From a virus (taxonomy: Duplodnaviria; Caudoviricetes): a stretch of DNA of 64,000 bases. Of the stretch, positions 3,470 to 63,146 are shown piece after piece. The stretch spans positions 2,635 through 66,634 of IMG/VR virus record IMGVR_UViG_3300047561_000672. One strand, written 5' to 3'. Below the pieces are notes generated by a model, which was not told the DNA's origin, made no database searches, and worked only from the letters and a program-made list of their open reading frames with translations. Within the stretch, counting starts at the first letter, position 1, and every line of letters starts with the position of its first letter. Made by a program: the position numbers and the translations under genes.

Positions 3470-3885
3470 AGGTATATCAGTGATACTTCTGCTTCTTTTG
3501 CCATCTCCTCACCTTTGACAAAGGATTCCATCCAGCGTTCAATCTTATTTTCTGGGCAGTAGATTTGCTTAATCCCCGATTGGATGATAGCTGCCATACA
3601 ATGGGCGCATGGTTGGCACGGATGGATGTAAATGGAATACCCCTCCAGAGGCTCTTTTGCGGCGATTATGGCGTTAAGCTCCGCATGGACAGTGAATAGC
3701 AGCTTGTACTTACGGTCATATATACGATCAACTGAGTCATCTACTCCCCGTGGGAATCCATTGAACCCTATAGAGGCTATGGTTTTGTCGGACCTGACAA
3801 TTACAGCACCAACCTGTGTTGAATTGTCCTTGCTCCACTTGGCCACATGGGAGGCCAACTCAAGGAATCTATTGTTCCACTTCAT
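3466..3885 (-). CDS. dCMP deaminase
   Basis: SKD.STQVGAVIV, GFNGFPRG, HAELNAI and PCAHC zinc-binding motifs. Confidence 0.92.
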   Translation of the reverse strand: MKWNNRFLELASHVAKWSKDNSTQVGAVIVRSDKTIASIGFNGFPRGVDDSVDRIYDRKYKLLFTVHAELNAIIAAKEPLEGYSIYIHPCQPCAHCMAAIIQSGIKQIYCPENKIERWMESFVKGEEMAKEAEVSLIYL

Positions 3886-4670: not shown

Positions 4671-4822
4671 TCTTCTTCTTGACCATCTTCTTCTTCTATT
4701 CGTTCAAACAATTGTCGTATAGGGTTGTCTTGAAACCCCTGCTCTTGTTCTGGGAACGGCATAAGGACTCCTGTATCATCAAAGTTGACAAGTAAGTCTT
4801 TATCAAAAGTAAATTGGTTCAC
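4667..4822 (-). CDS. small acidic protein (51 aa, not in ORF track)
   Basis: Read manually: GTG 4822, MNQFTFDKDLLVNFDDTGVLMPFPEQEQGFQDNPIRQLFERIEEEDGQEEE; TGA overlaps next ATG. Confidence 0.55.
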   Translation of the reverse strand: MNQFTFDKDLLVNFDDTGVLMPFPEQEQGFQDNPIRQLFERIEEEDGQEEE

Positions 4823-4834
4823 AGTGAAACAATT

Positions 4835-5731
4835 CTATAATCGTTTCTTCCTGTTCGCGAGTTTTTTCTTGGTGAGTTTCGAGGCTGATATGTTTTTCAC
4901 CCTTTTAATAGGCTCAGTTCCCCAACCATTAACAAGTCCTGATAACTTATTGGCGTTTTGGGCAAACCATTTGGAGTCAGCGAGGAACATTTTGACCGTA
5001 GGGTGATATTTCTTCATCCGCTTTAGTTTGGTAATGCTTTTCTTGTCCATCCATCCCTTGACTTCATGGTAAACAACATCTCCATTATTTTCGATTACCT
5101 TGAAGTCTGGAAGGTAGGAGCAGACCCCACGCCTTATTCCATCAAACCAAAATGTTTCAGGCTCATGCTCCCAAGACTGGATGGACCCATTGGCGCGTAG
5201 CCATTCCAAGTAGTAAGCGTAGTTAGACTCCCAGAGACTGCGAGCAAAGATCTCTTGGCCTCCTATTTGATGCCATCCGTTCTTGCATCGTGAATATCCT
5301 CCATAGTGACTGCGTCTCATTCGTATTGTCATTGTTCTTTTCTTTGTTGATCCCAAGGTTGCACACGATATGGAGCAGAACCTTCTTTTATTTGCCATGG
5401 AAGGTATCACGCCAAATTCTTTGTGGCAATATTCACAGTTAAGTTTTGTTTTTGGTATTGCAGGCTTTGGCCATTTTGCAAGTATCTTATTTCCTGTGTA
5501 TGTTCCAGAACAATTTCTAGAGCAGAAGATTCCACGTGGAGATATAGTTGTTATTGGGAAAACCTTGCCACACCACTTACACGTTCCGTTTCCGCGATCT
5601 TTTTTGTTTAACTCTTTAAGACGTTCTTTGTCGTTGTAGGCACATTTGGTACAACAATAGGTTCTGGTTTTTATGCCATTAAATTCTTTGCCGCACTGTT
5701 TACACTTATGTTCAAATGAGAAGCATTTCAT
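4835..5731 (-). CDS. Zn-finger-repeat PD-(D/E)XK (TnsA/DUF1064-like) endonuclease, homing-type architecture
   Basis: Three CxxC-x~12-CxxxC modules, then RSLWE.NYA...WEHEP...YLPDF...EVKG nuclease core; probable start MKCFSF at 5731 (ORF is open to 6016). Confidence 0.65.
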   Translation of the reverse strand: MKCFSFEHKCKQCGKEFNGIKTRTYCCTKCAYNDKERLKELNKKDRGNGTCKWCGKVFPITTISPRGIFCSRNCSGTYTGNKILAKWPKPAIPKTKLNCEYCHKEFGVIPSMANKRRFCSISCATLGSTKKRTMTIRMRRSHYGGYSRCKNGWHQIGGQEIFARSLWESNYAYYLEWLRANGSIQSWEHEPETFWFDGIRRGVCSYLPDFKVIENNGDVVYHEVKGWMDKKSITKLKRMKKYHPTVKMFLADSKWFAQNANKLSGLVNGWGTEPIKRVKNISASKLTKKKLANRKKRL

Positions 5732-6016
5732 TTTTTGTGCCTTACATTTTAAAGTATCTGAGGCAATCAAACAAGCGTTATCTTTTATGTTTCTGGGTCG
5801 AAGACGAATACGAGCTTCGGCCTTAGATTTTTGGTGTCCCATACCCGCTTGCCAGTCCAAGAATCGGTGCTGTTGCCAGCAATTCGTTTGCAGGTGTATC
5901 CCTTGGTTTGCCCAACCAACCTCCATCCATCTTTTTTTTGAATCGGGATTAAGGTCAACTCGTTCATACACTCCTCTTCTGATTTCTACGAAGCCGCTTG
6001 GTATCGTCGTGCCCAT

Positions 6017-6560: not shown

Positions 6561-6963
6561 CTTGCAGCCTTTCGCGCAACACCTCTTGAGCTTGCACAAG
6601 TTGTCCTGTCGCCACCGCAAACGCCTCACGCGCCTCGTCGCGTTCGCGCAAGGCATCCGATAGCAACTTCCGTAAAACCTTAACGCAGCCACAATGCACC
6701 TCGTCAGGATGGTCTGCTTTTACGTGCTCGGCGGCATTTTCCCAATCGGCAAACGTCTCCAACGCCTTGTCGCGCTCCACGCGGATCTTCTCTGCCTCGT
6801 CGAACAGTGCGTCATACTTCGCCAACTGTTTGTGAAGCTCCTTGTTCGCCTCGTCGCGCTCGCGTTCCAGTTTGCGGGCAAAATTCACAAATGATTCTAT
6901 AGGGTTTTTTAATTCTTGGAGCCAGTTTGCCCATTGCCTATCTGTTTCTGGCGTGTTGCTCAT
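6553..6963 (-). CDS. coiled-coil hypothetical protein
   Basis: TPETD start and repeated ERERDEA heptads. Confidence 0.6.
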   Translation of the reverse strand: MSNTPETDRQWANWLQELKNPIESFVNFARKLERERDEANKELHKQLAKYDALFDEAEKIRVERDKALETFADWENAAEHVKADHPDEVHCGCVKVLRKLLSDALRERDEAREAFAVATGQLVQAQEVLRERLQDD

Positions 6964-7217
6964 TTGTCCCACCTCTTCTTAAGATGACCGTAGTCACGGG
7001 GTTCAGTAACCCCCATGTCGCCTCCGCAGACGCCGCAGGTATCAATGTGCCAAGTTGCGCCATATGGATTGCCCTCGGGGCGTTTGCCGTGCTTTCGGCC
7101 ACATTCCTTGCAAATCCACTCTGGATACTTGTTCTTTTTAAAGATGGTATCGTAGTTGTTACGATACTTGTTCCAGTTGGACTTACGGTGTCTTGATCCT
7201 TTGCCAGTAAATGTCAT
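6960..7217 (-). CDS. small protein with Zn finger
   Basis: GKGSRHR...Y..NYDTIF N-terminus plus CxxC...CxxC; ATGA overlaps. Confidence 0.6.
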   Translation of the reverse strand: MTFTGKGSRHRKSNWNKYRNNYDTIFKKNKYPEWICKECGRKHGKRPEGNPYGATWHIDTCGVCGGDMGVTEPRDYGHLKKRWDK

Positions 7218-7672
7218 TTGATGATTCCTTCTTGTCTCGCCTGTGCTGCCACTTGTCCAACAAATTCGCGGCTGCAATTGAACTCAATAGCAATACTATG
7301 GAGTGCAACTGTGGGATTGGCAATCATGTAGCCTAAAACCTTGAATGCCCTGCATCCCTCCCTCAAGCGCGACCTTGTATGGGGCTTGCGTCCAACCACC
7401 ATCCCGTGGGTTCGTAAGGCTCTAGATACGGTGTATACGCTGACATTGAGTTTTTCTGCCAGTCCTAGGAGTCCAAGCGGGCCTTCGGAAAGAGCGTTGT
7501 CAATTTGTTCTTTTGAGATACCTTTGTTTTTTGCGGTTACGGAGTTGCGTTTCAGTATCAATCTTACAGTTTGATATTTAACCCCATAGCTTGCCACCAT
7601 CTCGTTGATGGTCATTGTTGATGCGTTTGCAAGGATCTGCTCTACCACTTCTTTTGGTGTATGTTTTGCCAT
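7214..7672 (-). CDS. multi-HTH DNA-binding protein
   Basis: Three HTH-like units (TINEMVASYGVKYQTVRLIL; LLGLAEKLNVSVYTVSRAL; LHSIAIEFNCSREFVGQV); first gene of the leftward operon. Confidence 0.6.
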   Translation of the reverse strand: MAKHTPKEVVEQILANASTMTINEMVASYGVKYQTVRLILKRNSVTAKNKGISKEQIDNALSEGPLGLLGLAEKLNVSVYTVSRALRTHGMVVGRKPHTRSRLREGCRAFKVLGYMIANPTVALHSIAIEFNCSREFVGQVAAQARQEGIIK

Positions 7673-7744
7673 AGCATACTTTGACACGACAACTTGCCAT
7701 ACGTTCAAAGTTTTTCTTTGACTTTGTTTGAACGAGTTGTAGGT

Positions 7745-8160
7745 TGCCCGTGTCTTAACAGACGATACCCACCACCAGCGGGTGGGACTAACATAGCCGC
7801 TGAACCCTGAATCCGTAGGTATGCAAGGATAAAACCGCCGAACGATCAGCAATCCGACCCAAGAAGTGATCAAAACGCCGTCTTGGGAATTCCATCCGCT
7901 AGTTGGGGTGGATAAAGAGCCAGCGCAAGCTGGGAGGTGGGGAGATAATTGCTATCGGTACAAAGATTGGCATCCTCGGAGCCGAATTATCTCTATGGCA
8001 CAACATCTAAGCGACAACGTGAGGGATGGTTACTGTCAAAAATCCATACTTAGCCCCTGCGGGGGCGAGGTATGGGCAAACGATCTTTCGCTCTTCCGTA
8101 GGGATAGAATTGTCAATGTGCGAGTAGCGGCGTTTCGGGCTTTAGAGTAAATGAGCCGCA
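7745..8160 (+). ncRNA. candidate large structured non-coding RNA (unassigned)
   Basis: No credible ORF; many perfect helices, a GCAA tetraloop and two pseudoknot-type pairings (see findings); strand inferred from the GNRA loop. Confidence 0.45.
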
Positions 8161-8170
8161 GTACCAGTAC

Positions 8171-8237
8171 TAAAACAAAAAAACATTGAACCCATTACAA
8201 AACACTACAAAACATTAAAAAAAAACATTGAACGTAT
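8171..8237. repeat. phased A-tract repeats
   Basis: AAAAAAACATTGAAC at 8177-8191 and 8219-8233; TACAAAACA at 8196-8204 and 8206-8214. Confidence 0.75.
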
Positions 8238-8263
8238 TGGTAAACTATGGGTCTATTAACAGT

Positions 8264-8578
8264 ATGAACAAATTTTCTGCTGTCATTGAGGGCATGGAAC
8301 AAGAGTACCTTCCTGCACCGAGAGGTGTAGAGGCTCCCATGAGCGACCTGAATCGCAGAACTACGGTCATTGAGGGGCTGCTGGGAAATCTCGGTGGTAA
8401 CGACCTGAGCCGTAGAACTACTTTTGCACAAGGGATAACAGGCGGATACATTAAGGGATCTGGGGAGATCCTGCGCGTATCGACAGCCTGCCCTGTGCAG
8501 GGCGATTGGATAGCCGCAATCGGGGAGAAATCCGACAAGGTCCACATTATTTCCAGTCGCCCAATTTTTAACCTATGA
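8264..8578 (+). CDS. hypothetical protein or structured RNA leader
   Basis: ATG ORF ending in an ATGA overlap, but the sequence also folds into many hairpins; contains a 21-nt imperfect repeat. Confidence 0.35.
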   Translation: MNKFSAVIEGMEQEYLPAPRGVEAPMSDLNRRTTVIEGLLGNLGGNDLSRRTTFAQGITGGYIKGSGEILRVSTACPVQGDWIAAIGEKSDKVHIISSRPIFNL

Positions 8579-9059: not shown

Positions 9060-9703
9060 GCAACTATGCGCTTTTAAGTGATGGAAGGCTTGGAAATCAA
9101 CTTTCTAGACTTTACGGGGTTTATGCAACCTACGACACGATAGACAAACTATATTTTCCCCACTTTTTAAAATACAGCCACCACTTTAAATGTGATAAAC
9201 TTTGTTCAGATAGTGACTTTAACAACAATCTCTGTAATTTTATTGAAATAGACTGGTCATCCCACGGTTTGATTGATCCAGACAATTTTTTAAGCGAAAG
9301 ATTTTCCGATTTGTTCTTAAACAACAGCAGCCAAAGAATGGTCAACGAAATGGTTGATGAACTTCCCAAGGGTAATCTTATTGCGGTCCACATGCGCCAT
9401 GGGGATTACAAAGATTGGTGCAACGGAGAACAATACTTTACAAAAGAACAGTACATTGACAAGTTGATCGATACCATTGCCAATGCTGGAATCAACCAGC
9501 CCAATGTTGTGATATTTTCGGACGAACAACAGGATACGGGATACAAATTTTCTTGGGATATCACCAACGGAGACCCTGTTATTGACATGTATCTGATGAG
9601 TTACTTTAATTACTTCATCAGTAGCCATTCAACATTTTCTGGCATTGCTATTCAGTTGGCAAAAAGCCGAGGCAACTTTATTTCCAACTTTCAAATGGGA
9701 TAA
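9056..9703 (+). CDS. GT11 alpha-1,2-fucosyltransferase-like glycosyltransferase
   Basis: GRLGNQL, IAVHMRHGDY, IFSD and DMYLMS...I.S.STFS motifs of GT11. Confidence 0.85.
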   Translation: MSNYALLSDGRLGNQLSRLYGVYATYDTIDKLYFPHFLKYSHHFKCDKLCSDSDFNNNLCNFIEIDWSSHGLIDPDNFLSERFSDLFLNNSSQRMVNEMVDELPKGNLIAVHMRHGDYKDWCNGEQYFTKEQYIDKLIDTIANAGINQPNVVIFSDEQQDTGYKFSWDITNGDPVIDMYLMSYFNYFISSHSTFSGIAIQLAKSRGNFISNFQMG

Positions 9704-10017
9704 TGGACATCTACAATCCAGCCCAAACGCCTAGCCTCCTTCCCGTTGCTATGAATCCAATCATGGCACTCTCTGCACAATGCGGCAAAATATTCGTATC
9801 GGCAGAGCCACTGGCCATTGCGCCCCGCCTTGTGATGGATGTCGTGGCTGTCCTTGTTTTTGCAACGCTCGCACTGTGGGTGGAGGGAAAGATACGCATT
9901 CTTTACCTTGGAGTACTCGTTGTATTGCTTTGCGCGTTTAGGGGATGCTGCCCGCAGCCTGCCGCTTCTTTTTAACGGTTTGTTTGAACGCTTCAGTGTG
10001 GAATTTGTCTGATTCAT
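9691..10017 (-). CDS. HNH endonuclease
   Basis: CERC...DIHHKAGR...ALCRECHDWIH. Confidence 0.8.
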   Translation of the reverse strand: MNQTNSTLKRSNKPLKRSGRLRAASPKRAKQYNEYSKVKNAYLSLHPQCERCKNKDSHDIHHKAGRNGQWLCRYEYFAALCRECHDWIHSNGKEARRLGWIVDVHYPI

Positions 10018-10455: not shown

Positions 10456-11399
10456 ACCTAGTATTTGCATACCACAATGGAGACGCACAGCTTGCACTTA
10501 AATCCGCGCAGGCTATTACTGCGATGGGGATCAATATGCGCCACAAGGCTACTGTGTGTTGCTCTAACAATACACTGTTAATCGATGAAATAACGCTTGA
10601 ACTGCAAAAGTCATTCCCGACTGTTGAGCGTCTCATTGCACAGGATGGATACAATGGGTGGCCACTCGGCCCCAACCAGATGTTCAGCGATGCATCTTCC
10701 CATTGCTATGCCACAGAAGAACCTTGGTACTTCTGGGAGCCAGATTGCGTTCCAATGGTTGAGCGTTGGATGGATAAACTTGAAGATGACTTCAATAGCA
10801 AGCCCGCTATTGTTGGATGCATGTACGAGGGAGGTATGGCCCCCAGCGGAAAGAATGTTTACAAGGCTATCGTCGGTAGTGCCGTCTATCCTCACAACGT
10901 CTTGGATTATTGCGACTTGGCCAAAAATCTAAACAACTACAATCTAGCCTATCGAAACGCTGGTGTGATTCCAGAACCTTGGGATATCTACTGCCGATGG
11001 GAGTTTATGGCTATTGGGCGTAATACTCCGTTGATTCGGGCTTATTGGCAGAGCGTCAACTATCAGTGGCAGGGCAATGACGTACGTTTTTACGCGCAAA
11101 GCCCAGAGGCCCATGAGATTCAAGAAGTAACGTGCCCTACTAGACTTGTAGACAAAGACGCTGCCGTGATCCATGGATGTAAGGATGGCTCACTCCATCA
11201 AATGGCTATTGATCGCTTTGAAATTACTCAACCAATTTTGAAAGAAAAAGATACTACTATCTCCGTTAAAACTCCTTTAAAACAAACAGAAGGAAGAAAG
11301 AAGCGGAACCTCAGTGACGAAGAAAGAAAAAGAAGGAGTGAGGCAATGAAAGCGATGGTTGCTAAAAGAAAGCAATCTTTGATTGAACGCTCGGCCTAG
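10452..11399 (+). CDS. putative GT-A-fold glycosyltransferase-like protein
   Basis: N-terminal VFAY strand, GWPLGPN and WYFWEPDCVP (DxD-like), IHGCKD; basic tail. Confidence 0.4.
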   Translation: MNLVFAYHNGDAQLALKSAQAITAMGINMRHKATVCCSNNTLLIDEITLELQKSFPTVERLIAQDGYNGWPLGPNQMFSDASSHCYATEEPWYFWEPDCVPMVERWMDKLEDDFNSKPAIVGCMYEGGMAPSGKNVYKAIVGSAVYPHNVLDYCDLAKNLNNYNLAYRNAGVIPEPWDIYCRWEFMAIGRNTPLIRAYWQSVNYQWQGNDVRFYAQSPEAHEIQEVTCPTRLVDKDAAVIHGCKDGSLHQMAIDRFEITQPILKEKDTTISVKTPLKQTEGRKKRNLSDEERKRRSEAMKAMVAKRKQSLIERSA

Positions 11400-11420
11400 T
11401 TGTGTGTCAAACCTCGTCAT

Positions 11421-58270: not shown

Positions 58271-58498
58271 TGTGGTTTATGTATTAGACAAAGCAAAGTG
58301 CAATGCGTTCAAGTTGGTCTATAAATGATTTTCCAGAGGATGGGGACAAGCCGTCCACTCCTTTGCCTGCCCCCGTCCCGACGAGGAAACTGAGCGAGGC
58401 AGAGAGGTTTGCCCTCATACGCAACCGCAAAGACCGCAAAGGAAGGGGATCTCGTCGGCGCAATGGCGAAAAACGCTGGGCGACTAAGGGTAAGTGAA

Positions 58499-62028: not shown

Positions 62029-62238
62029 TCAATAGCTTTTAAGGTATCTTAGAGCCTGATCAAATCCTGAAAAAAGCATTGTCTTGTTTTCCAGTTGGAT
62101 GATAAAGAACCCATCCTCGTCCCTTGTAATACTTTGCGGGCGTGGCAAGGTATCTTTGGACGCTTGGAAAAGTCTTTCCAGTTGATCGATGGGGTTCATG
62201 TTTACTGTATTGTGTTTTTTGTGGTGCATAAATTTCAA
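62029..62238 (-). CDS. hypothetical early protein
   Basis: ATGA overlap; start uncertain. Confidence 0.45.
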   Translation of the reverse strand: MKFMHHKKHNTVNMNPIDQLERLFQASKDTLPRPQSITRDEDGFFIIQLENKTMLFSGFDQALRYLKSY

Positions 62239-63146
62239 TGGATGCCGATAGCAATATCAACCCCACGAAACTTTTCAGATCCACAGGCGTGGCCTGAAGG
62301 AGTGCAATCTCCGCATTTACCAGAGCAAACGAAGACTCTGCGTCCCGCCGATTCTTTAACGTCACGCGCATAGTCGGAGAATCCCGCATTCCTGCGCGAC
62401 TGATAGGCTTTCCCGTGATCCTTTTGAGTCTGGATTGCAATGAATTCACCCCGTGCAATAGGTAAACGTGAGACCGCTTCCCTTTCTTCACTTGTCCCGC
62501 TGCCACCGCTTGAAAGATTGAGAAGGTAGTTGGCAGGAAACCTGCCGCCCGCTGCCGCATAATCTAAGAGAATGCGCCATGATTTTGAGTACCCGTACAC
62601 TTGCAAGTCTGGTCTTGCAAAGCATAGGCGGAACCAGAACCCCAGAATGTCCAAGGAAGCAAAGTCGCCATCGACATAAAGCCTGACAATTGCGCCTTTT
62701 GGTAATTCCATCCAAGCTTGAAGGATGGCGTCCCGTCCCGCTTTGGAACGTAGGCGAAGGCTGTTTACCAATTGGCGAGCAAAGGCAGGGGGATATCGCC
62801 ATGCGCGAAAGCTATAGCAGAATCCACCCATCAGGTCGCCGTTGGCACCATAAAGGCAGGATCCAGCTTGTGGGCAATCGACGCCCGCCAAACTGGAAAA
62901 TGCAAAAAACGGGAGCTTGCCATTGCCTTTTGCGAATATGGCAGGAAGCTTTCCATTTTCAAGCCGTGCGGCGGTAGCTGACCAGCCTTTCCCTCCGCCC
63001 GTAGTAGACCGCAAATAATTGGCACGATCACGGAAAAGATCAATGGCGGGTGATAGTGAATCCTTGGCAAGGCAATCTTGTCCTATGGCGTATAGGCCAC
63101 GTGTAAACAAAGGGGAATCGGGTTTCTTGGGTTGCTTGGTTTTCAT
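62235..63146 (-). CDS. Gp88-like protein
   Basis: FSSLAGVDCPQAGSC...CYS..A, VRLYVDGDF, VYGYSK, NLSS, C-terminal CSGKCGDC...C. Confidence 0.7.
   Translation of the reverse strand: MKTKQPKKPDSPLFTRGLYAIGQDCLAKDSLSPAIDLFRDRANYLRSTTGGGKGWSATAARLENGKLPAIFAKGNGKLPFFAFSSLAGVDCPQAGSCLYGANGDLMGGFCYSFRAWRYPPAFARQLVNSLRLRSKAGRDAILQAWMELPKGAIVRLYVDGDFASLDILGFWFRLCFARPDLQVYGYSKSWRILLDYAAAGGRFPANYLLNLSSGGSGTSEEREAVSRLPIARGEFIAIQTQKDHGKAYQSRRNAGFSDYARDVKESAGRRVFVCSGKCGDCTPSGHACGSEKFRGVDIAIGIH

Follow-up and report, generated by a model that had tools for sequence, protein, structure and literature searches.

The window analysed here is a stretch of 64,000 nucleotides (nt) from an IMG/VR virus record that is 66,634 nt long and 91% complete, and the element under study is present in this record once. 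It sits in a 591-nt gap between two divergently oriented genes, P0002 on the left and P0003 (8264-8578, +) on the right. The RNA that we describe below forms the head of a rightward operon upstream of DnaB, which lies ~3.2-3.5 kb rightward of it, with primase much further on. The order of features is conserved among relatives and comprises an HTH gene, often an HNH gene, the RNA, two rightward genes, further small genes, an unknown 330-aa gene and DnaB. P0002 has 15 homologs, is syntenic with this slot in nearly all loci, and is predicted by its AF2 model to form three tandem 3-helix HTH bundles; a fold search with the model against PDB gave no significant match. We found no recognisable initiator or DNA polymerase in the window. 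In many relatives the slot is bordered by small HNH endonuclease genes, as at 9691-10017 (-) in the window and at L072:4338-4622 and 6897-7298, and a 393-aa protein encoded at 4835-6016 (-) combines zinc-finger/HNH-like and Holliday-junction-resolvase-like (DUF1064) parts.

Homologs of the element were reached through its neighbour. A profile of the 15 P0002 homologs led to 50 loci from viral and metagenome contigs, and nhmmer revealed an intergenic element beside most of them, with 60-70% nucleotide identity over ~500 nt. Altogether, nhmmer detected RNA homology at 72 loci, 43 of them distinct. The homologs occur in at least 44 IMG/VR contigs of uncultured, mostly freshwater phages, and a scan with an invariant 20-base motif yielded 44 viral contigs. 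After duplicates were removed, 39 distinct sequences in eight clades (defined at 85% identity) were retained, and the clade of the window is only 53-58% identical to the remaining clades. Cultured-phage records held no relative of P0002 or of the RNA, for which two clades were tried. Two matches to the 20-base motif among 185,000 prokaryote genomes were rejected as chance, given that they cover only ~30-37 nt of the model and that the flanking helices are missing, and therefore they offer no clue to the host.

An initial annotation of this DNA had reported no credible ORF at the locus. This is correct in that no frame or strand is conserved, and the longest open frame differs in both respects among homologs. 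However, a 94-aa ORF does exist at 7866-8150. It is frameshifted in the nearest relative, where a 1-nt insertion breaks the sole sizeable ORF, and in other samples, with frameshifting indels at 8013-8034 in contigs that stem from four independent runs on freshwater or river samples. The element is not protein-coding, and its homologs conserve covarying pairs rather than a reading frame.

The nearest relative, which was found via the flanking proteins, is ~99% identical over 7700-8175, and the P0002 and P0003 proteins are 91% and 53% identical, respectively. Because P0003 has only 53% identity directly beside an RNA with 99% identity, either recombination or very fast evolution begins at the 3' border of the RNA. 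Among four independent metagenome runs, 18 variable sites fall within the 73 nt at 7637-7709 and none within 7744-7896; these same runs carry ~10 variable sites across 7744-8187 and ~9 in 8188-8315. The RNA is under purifying selection and is far more conserved than the flanking genes.

The case for structure rests on covariation, not on single-sequence folding, which is only modestly better than shuffles on the + strand (z -2.9) and does not exceed them on the - strand (z -1.4). We took 70 pairs, grouped in 11 helices, from the main clade and counted them on alignment A4, which was produced by MAFFT from sequence only and was not fitted to structure. Canonical pairs fill 89.9% of the cells of these 70 pairs, compared with 39-43% when the partners are slid by 1-3 columns. 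Similarly, 43 pairs have changes on both sides, and thus are compensatory, compared with 12-17 when slid, and the covariation score is 0.288 compared with 0.06-0.09. In 500 column shuffles, values as high as those observed never arose. For the pseudoknot region these A4 figures are underestimates, because several clades are 1-5 nt out of register around it (MAFFT sub-alignment A5). RNAalifold, when applied to the MAFFT alignment, returned 35 pairs, 15 of them with compensatory changes. The + strand is fixed by positions that are G-U in most sequences. RNAduplex scores for arms swapped across clades favoured self pairs over cross pairs, in a noisy comparison where arms are common to several clades.

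As read from these alignments, the RNA folds into an H-type pseudoknot and no fewer than eight other conserved helices, and it has three single-stranded motifs that are invariant (Table 1). These motifs are the 24-nt loop enclosed by P3, which is invariant in alignments A3-A5, the UCGGAGCC segment within the P7 domain, and the GCCCC/GGGGCG of P10.

Table 1. Features of the RNA locus. Coordinates are window positions unless a locus is named.
Feature	Position	Strand	Remarks
P0002	7214-7672	-	Divergent neighbour; triple helix-turn-helix protein; conserved left flank of the slot
Predicted RNA promoter region	7718-7754	+	Two overlapping readings
Sigma70-like reading	TTGACT 7718-23 / TAGGTT 7740-45	+	N16 spacing; putative start at 7752
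Copy of recurrent phage motif TTGAACG-N16-18-GTC	7728-54	+	Putative start near 7764 by analogy
Structured RNA	7752-8164	+	~400-413 nt; nhmmer homology, covariation, G-U pairs
H1, GUCU / AGAC	7752-7763	+	RNA 5' hairpin or inverted repeat inside promoter
Pseudoknot PKa	CCCAC 7768-72 / GUGGG 7782-86	+	H-type; interleaved with PKb
Pseudoknot PKb	CAGCGG 7776-81 / CCGCUG 7797-7802	+	Whole pseudoknot 7768-7802; conserved ACAUA-type loop
P3 (7807-7849)	CUGA-UC 7807-13 / GAUCAG 7844-49	+	Encloses invariant 24-nt loop AGGUAUGCAAGGAUAAAACCGCCG, 7817-7840
P4 hairpin	CCCAAGA 7858-64 / UCUUGGG 7881-87	+	15 distinct arm pairs
P5 hairpin	AUCCGC 7894-99 / GUGGAU 7908-13	+	16 arm variants; expansion-segment site in relatives
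P6 hairpin, CCAGC-GCAA-GCUGG	7920-24 / 7929-33	+	12 arm variants; 4/6 pairs compensatory
P7	GAGAUAAUU 7942-50 / AAUUAUCUC 7985-93	+	9-10 bp; closes domain with invariant UCGGAGCC, 7976-83
P8/P9, variable (tentative)	8004-8042	+	CAUCU 8004-08 / GGAUG 8024-28, or GACA 8013-16 / UGUC 8034-37; conserved AGGRAUG motif
P10 long hairpin	8044-8075	+	Around invariant GCCCC-loop-GGGGCG
Terminal hairpin	GCGGC 8127-31 / GCCGC 8155-59	+	86.5% paired
A-rich spacer	8172-8253	+	Duplicated AAAAAAACAUUGAAC block (direct repeats) and promoter-like motif of next gene
Initiator-like winged-helix gene in slot of relatives	L012:1811-2314, L025:1723-2268, L017:1498-2025		Locus coordinates

All the complementarities listed in the initial annotation are present in the window at the coordinates given there. 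The H-type pseudoknot among them covaries: a constrained finder, judged against shuffles, recovered this topology in 37 of 39 sequences with 20 distinct arm sets, for which the shuffle p value is at most 0.023 in 19 and 0.063 in the remaining one. The window's own pseudoknot has a loop 1 nt beyond the limit of the finder and was checked by eye, and it fits. On A4, where the pseudoknot makes up helices 1-2, all nine of its pairs have compensatory changes. An alternative pairing of CCCACC 7768-73 with a long-range GGUGGG appears in the nested fold of the window and is not conserved. The H1 hairpin has matching NGAC sequences within nt 8-24 in 19 of 27 distinct 5' heads, and its fourth base covaries, although it is missing from some clades.

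The P3 stem is represented by 19 distinct arm pairs, and five of its six pairs are compensatory. Four stems that had been noticed in the single sequence (P4, P5, P7 and P10) all covary among the homologs. P4 is paired in 94.7% of cells and includes switches from CG to AU. P7 forms ~10 bp in each of 17 distinct arm pairs (p <= 0.05 against shuffles for every one), with 97.9% of cells paired. P10 has 15 arm variants with a median z of -4.5, and its 16 pairs are 93% paired, six of them compensatory. The helix of P6 likewise covaries, but the GNRA loop for which this hairpin had been singled out is not conserved in sequence. Another suggestion, that AAACGCCG at 7873-80 pairs with CGGCGUUU at 8128-35 some 250 nt away, did not survive: the complementarity is present in the window, but in no clade does it score above shuffles (p >= 0.15), and it competes with the terminal hairpin, which covaries through three compensatory pairs (for example, GCGAC / GUCGU in L011/L088).

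Two regions of the element are more plastic. The loop of P5 (equivalent to window positions 7900-7907) carries inserts of ~100 nt in L007/L057 and of ~60 nt in L060/L071/L079/L089, and the closing stem is kept, which looks like the behaviour of expansion segments in structured RNAs. These two expansion segments differ, each having its own hairpins. The sole natural variant in a stem, C7897U, also lies in P5, where the pair is kept as G-U. Natural indels cluster in the P8/P9 region, for which the equivalent in the main clade (CUCAU / AUGAG) is 79% paired with three compensatory pairs, and the assignment of helices there in the window is tentative.

We are close to certain that 7752-8164 (+) is a real structured non-coding RNA. 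Searches with Rfam 15 (cmscan) produced nothing at the gathering score in the window or in the loci of ten relatives, a set that covers the clade of the window and the seven other clades. At E <= 10, the element from the window and from the main clade gave chance-level matches to unrelated small families only, and no Rfam model for RNase P RNA, group I/II introns, self-cleaving ribozymes or riboswitches was matched. ARAGORN identified neither tRNA nor tmRNA over the 64-kb window, and a tag-like reading (ANDLSL...) from 8078 onward is superficial and not conserved. For tRNA, tmRNA, RNase P, group I/II introns and small ribozymes, this absence had been anticipated correctly from the single sequence. 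The full-text literature, searched also by motif, held no description of this RNA. A catalogue of candidate structured RNAs from IMG/VR (Fremin, Bhatt and Kyrpides 2023; PMC10690425) lists 8,495 DNA-virus candidates with a mean length of 67 nt; it shares its data source and discovery logic with our study, and pieces of this RNA could be among its candidates. Its text mentions neither a 400-nt pseudoknotted RNA nor a link to replication (PMC10690425). By these searches, the element represents a previously undescribed family of large (~400 nt) pseudoknotted phage-encoded RNAs. The suggestion that it is an undescribed large phage RNA is thus supported by strong covariation and by the lack of an Rfam 15 match, and its resemblance to ROOL and GOLLD is one of kind only, as it is a member of neither.

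Two overlapping promoter readings can be made immediately upstream of the RNA (Table 1). Alignments of the region upstream of the RNA keep TTGAC, and TTTGAAC and GTC are invariant, as nearly is the TA of TAGG. The second reading belongs to a recurrent pattern, TTGAAC-N16-19-GTC, that is present in 12 copies in the window compared with 2.6 expected, is oriented with the genes and is clustered in the early region. Copies of the form TTGAACG-N16-(T/G)GTC occur at 2013-2038, 3517-3542, 4681-4707, 7683-7708, 8228-8253, 9984-10009, 11383-11408 and 58287-58312, among others, with A/T tracts upstream. Since a start codon follows the GTC by 9-16 nt in eight copies (9-12 nt in six), we infer that the motif is a class of phage promoter with ECF-sigma-like geometry that generates leaderless or nearly leaderless early mRNAs. 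The RNA would then be transcribed independently from its own promoter. A search of sequencing runs located the sequence in no RNA run. Because there are two readings of the start, its 5' end should lie within 7752-7765, and the start at 7752 is favoured by the frequent occurrence of the H1 hairpin in the distinct heads. The 3' end probably lies near 8160-8165 or further downstream, and no canonical terminator or processing site was found after the RNA. Within the A-rich spacer that follows, a promoter block, AAAAAAACATTGAAC, is duplicated 42 nt apart (8172-8245), its first copy being without the GTC element. This spacer may serve as a DNA-unwinding region.

What sets this locus apart is its alternative content in sister phages. 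Six P0002-bearing relatives with enough upstream DNA are without the RNA, and in them the slot holds a leftward gene for a protein of 167-181 aa. The first ~100 residues of this protein match PHROG replication-initiator and DnaD-like loader families (E 1e-12 to 1e-16). In two relatives, the 3' part of the gene contains 16-nt-period repeats (L012 2178-2263 and L025 2114-2180), which probably constitute an origin inside the initiator-like gene; the RNA cassette of the window has no iterons that we could find. By pairwise BLAST, the flanks are 75-97% identical across the swap, and the exchanged cassettes measure ~620 nt with the RNA and ~1.44 kb with an HNH gene plus the initiator-like gene.

The RNA and the initiator-like gene are mutually exclusive occupants of one slot. 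The initiator-like gene accompanies none of the 72 RNA loci (43 distinct), and at least 10 contigs (12 contig names) carry that gene, always in the same slot and never with the RNA. A search of whole records located the initiator-like gene in four, including one that is 100% complete, and the RNA is missing from all four. Conversely, the gene is missing from six of six RNA-bearing records, three of which are 100%, 96% and 91% complete. Because the swap can be observed inside at least three sub-lineages of P0002, it happened more than once. HNH endonuclease genes beside the slot might drive this exchange of cassettes. P0002 is the constant left neighbour of both cassettes. In most relatives a GC-rich hairpin comes after the RNA; it is part of the flank common to both cassettes, and RNA-less phages have it as well. 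When the gene contents of complete RNA-bearing and RNA-less genomes were compared, no protein tracked the RNA. A GP88-like protein (62235-63146) that appeared to be RNA-specific in a comparison of two genomes was discarded as a partner, as it is missing from the RNA-bearing genome that is 96% complete.

Replication initiation is the only hypothesis for function that has specific support. We propose that the RNA is a replication-initiation module, because it occupies the slot of an initiator-like gene that has iteron-like repeats in sister phages, and we place the probability of this reading at roughly 40%. The proposal is supported by the fact that the slot heads the replication region and that RNA-bearing genomes are without that initiator. 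It is perhaps a little more doubtful that a tailed-phage lineage has replaced an initiator protein and its iteron origin with a 400-nt pseudoknotted RNA gene that itself both specifies and initiates the origin. Mechanistically, the promoter-driven transcript would fold precisely, and the folded transcript would open or prime an origin beside the A-rich region. The RNA module would in this way take the place of the initiator protein, following the logic of ColE1 RNA II or of the T4 R-loop origins.

Both precedents are informative in their similarities and in their differences. RNA II of ColE1-type plasmids is a promoter-driven, structured pre-primer of several hundred nt that lies at the origin of a replicon without its own initiator, and it must fold correctly. 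The phage RNA is structured and several hundred nt long as well. The initiator-like gene of sister phages is missing from the RNA-bearing genomes that are 100%, 96% and 91% complete, but most proteins of these phages are without a family, and another initiator may be among them. The two RNAs have no sequence or structural homology, no counterpart of the antisense RNA I was seen, and the phage RNA comes from a tailed phage of 66 kb that encodes a DnaB and a primase of its own; R-loop formation, processing by RNase H and priming are hypothetical for it. The T4 origins oriF and oriG consist of a promoter followed by an easily unwound A/T-rich stretch, and their transcript has been proposed to initiate the leading strand with no need for an initiator protein. 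A predicted phage promoter and an A/T-rich stretch are found at our locus also. No requirement for a conserved tertiary fold is known for T4 origin transcripts, whereas the fold is the most conserved feature here.

Several considerations argue against a role in replication. The initiator-like protein matches known families only in its N-terminal winged-helix DNA-binding part (~100 aa), and it could instead be a regulator. The slot lies at a divergent promoter region beside HNH genes, and it may be a hotspot for unrelated cargo. The downstream A-rich tract can also be explained as promoter-upstream DNA, and rA:dT hybrids are weak, which matters for R-loop priming. RNA-bearing genomes may also encode an unrecognised initiator, because most of their proteins are without a family. 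The lack of a canonical terminator or processing site after the RNA also speaks against this role. Finally, a pre-primer has no obvious need for invariant loops and a pseudoknot.

We regard the chief rival to the replication reading as somewhat unlikely. The element might be a trans-acting 'ornate' RNA like ROOL or GOLLD that self-assembles, or that scaffolds or sequesters a host or phage factor via its invariant loops, in which case the slot would simply accept varying cargo, and its alternation with the initiator-like gene would be a coincidence. Like those RNAs, the element is large, elaborately folded, pseudoknotted and phage-encoded, was found by covariation, and is without a known function or partner. 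Its many helices, the expansion segments at a hairpin tip and its own predicted promoter agree with such a role, as do invariant single-stranded motifs that would suit ligand or tertiary contacts. The gene-content comparison, which linked no protein partner to the RNA, and the nearby HNH genes, which suggest a mobile hotspot, point in the same direction. Both ROOL and GOLLD are carried by phages, have no known function and often reside near the tRNA islands of phages or prophages (PMC12286853). In contrast, this RNA has no tRNA neighbours, as judged by ARAGORN, and it occupies a fixed syntenic slot upstream of replication genes. It is also shorter, at ~400 nt versus roughly 580 to over 800, and the ROOL and GOLLD family models are unmatched even at E <= 10 on the element itself. 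Inspection by eye revealed no palindromic loop with covariation, of the kind that would point to contacts within a homo-oligomer. This explanation also does not account for the strict either/or relationship with an iteron-bearing initiator-like gene in at least three sub-lineages.

It is improbable, in our view, that the RNA acts in cis as the leader of the early rightward operon and controls read-through into the downstream genes, whether by processive antitermination like that of HK022 put or by a riboswitch-like decision. Its placement directly after an early promoter and before rightward genes is what such a leader would exhibit, no terminator is present in the window between the RNA and the gene at 8264, and the GC-rich hairpin follows the RNA in most relatives. 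However, that hairpin lies in the shared flank noted above and also occurs in RNA-less phages, and the next gene comes with a conserved promoter-like motif of its own (8228-53), 10 nt before its ATG. In addition, RNA-less sister phages presumably express the same downstream genes without the RNA, and 400 nt with 10 helices far exceeds the known put-type elements.

Less probable still is an RNA immunity or regulatory element resembling P4 CI RNA or P1 c4 RNA, for which the winged-helix protein of sister phages would be the repressor counterpart. Phage repressors are usually found at the divergent early-promoter region, and the gene in the alternate cassette encodes a winged-helix domain that binds DNA. 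However, no known immunity RNA reaches 100 nt, that gene has iteron-like repeats and matches initiator families, and no target complementarity was identified. We give a similarly low chance to a ribozyme that processes itself or acts on a different substrate. A conserved pseudoknotted architecture with unpaired nucleotides that never vary would be expected of a catalytic RNA, yet no ribozyme, intron or RNase P model was matched even at the permissive threshold used above, and the element interrupts no gene. An element that acts only as DNA (a structured single-strand initiation signal or a protein-binding origin region) is very improbable. Although the element occupies the origin slot and G-T pairs are tolerated in hairpins of single-stranded DNA, the cassette is devoid of iterons, the element is directly preceded by a conserved promoter, and both its H-type pseudoknot and its multi-domain fold of 400 nt, which carries expansion segments, are characteristic of RNA.

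Large multi-helix pseudoknotted RNAs are rare, and most of those from phages, such as ROOL and GOLLD, are without a known function. It is unusual that natural swaps against an initiator-like gene at identical flanks provide a concrete functional lead. If the replication reading is true, an initiator protein can be substituted by a folded RNA in a phage with double-stranded DNA. Such a large structured 'initiator RNA' would be the first known from phages, and it would be interchangeable with a protein module by recombination. The two cassettes would then constitute a natural pair of interchangeable modules for experiments. Should the replication lead fail, the new family would remain a well-defined target for Rfam and for structural work. 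One minor observation concerns the invariant loop of P3, in which GTATGCAAGGAT at 7819-7830 resembles GTTTGCAAGGAT at 7625-7636 inside the P0002 gene at 11 of 12 bases, a resemblance that is possibly due to chance.
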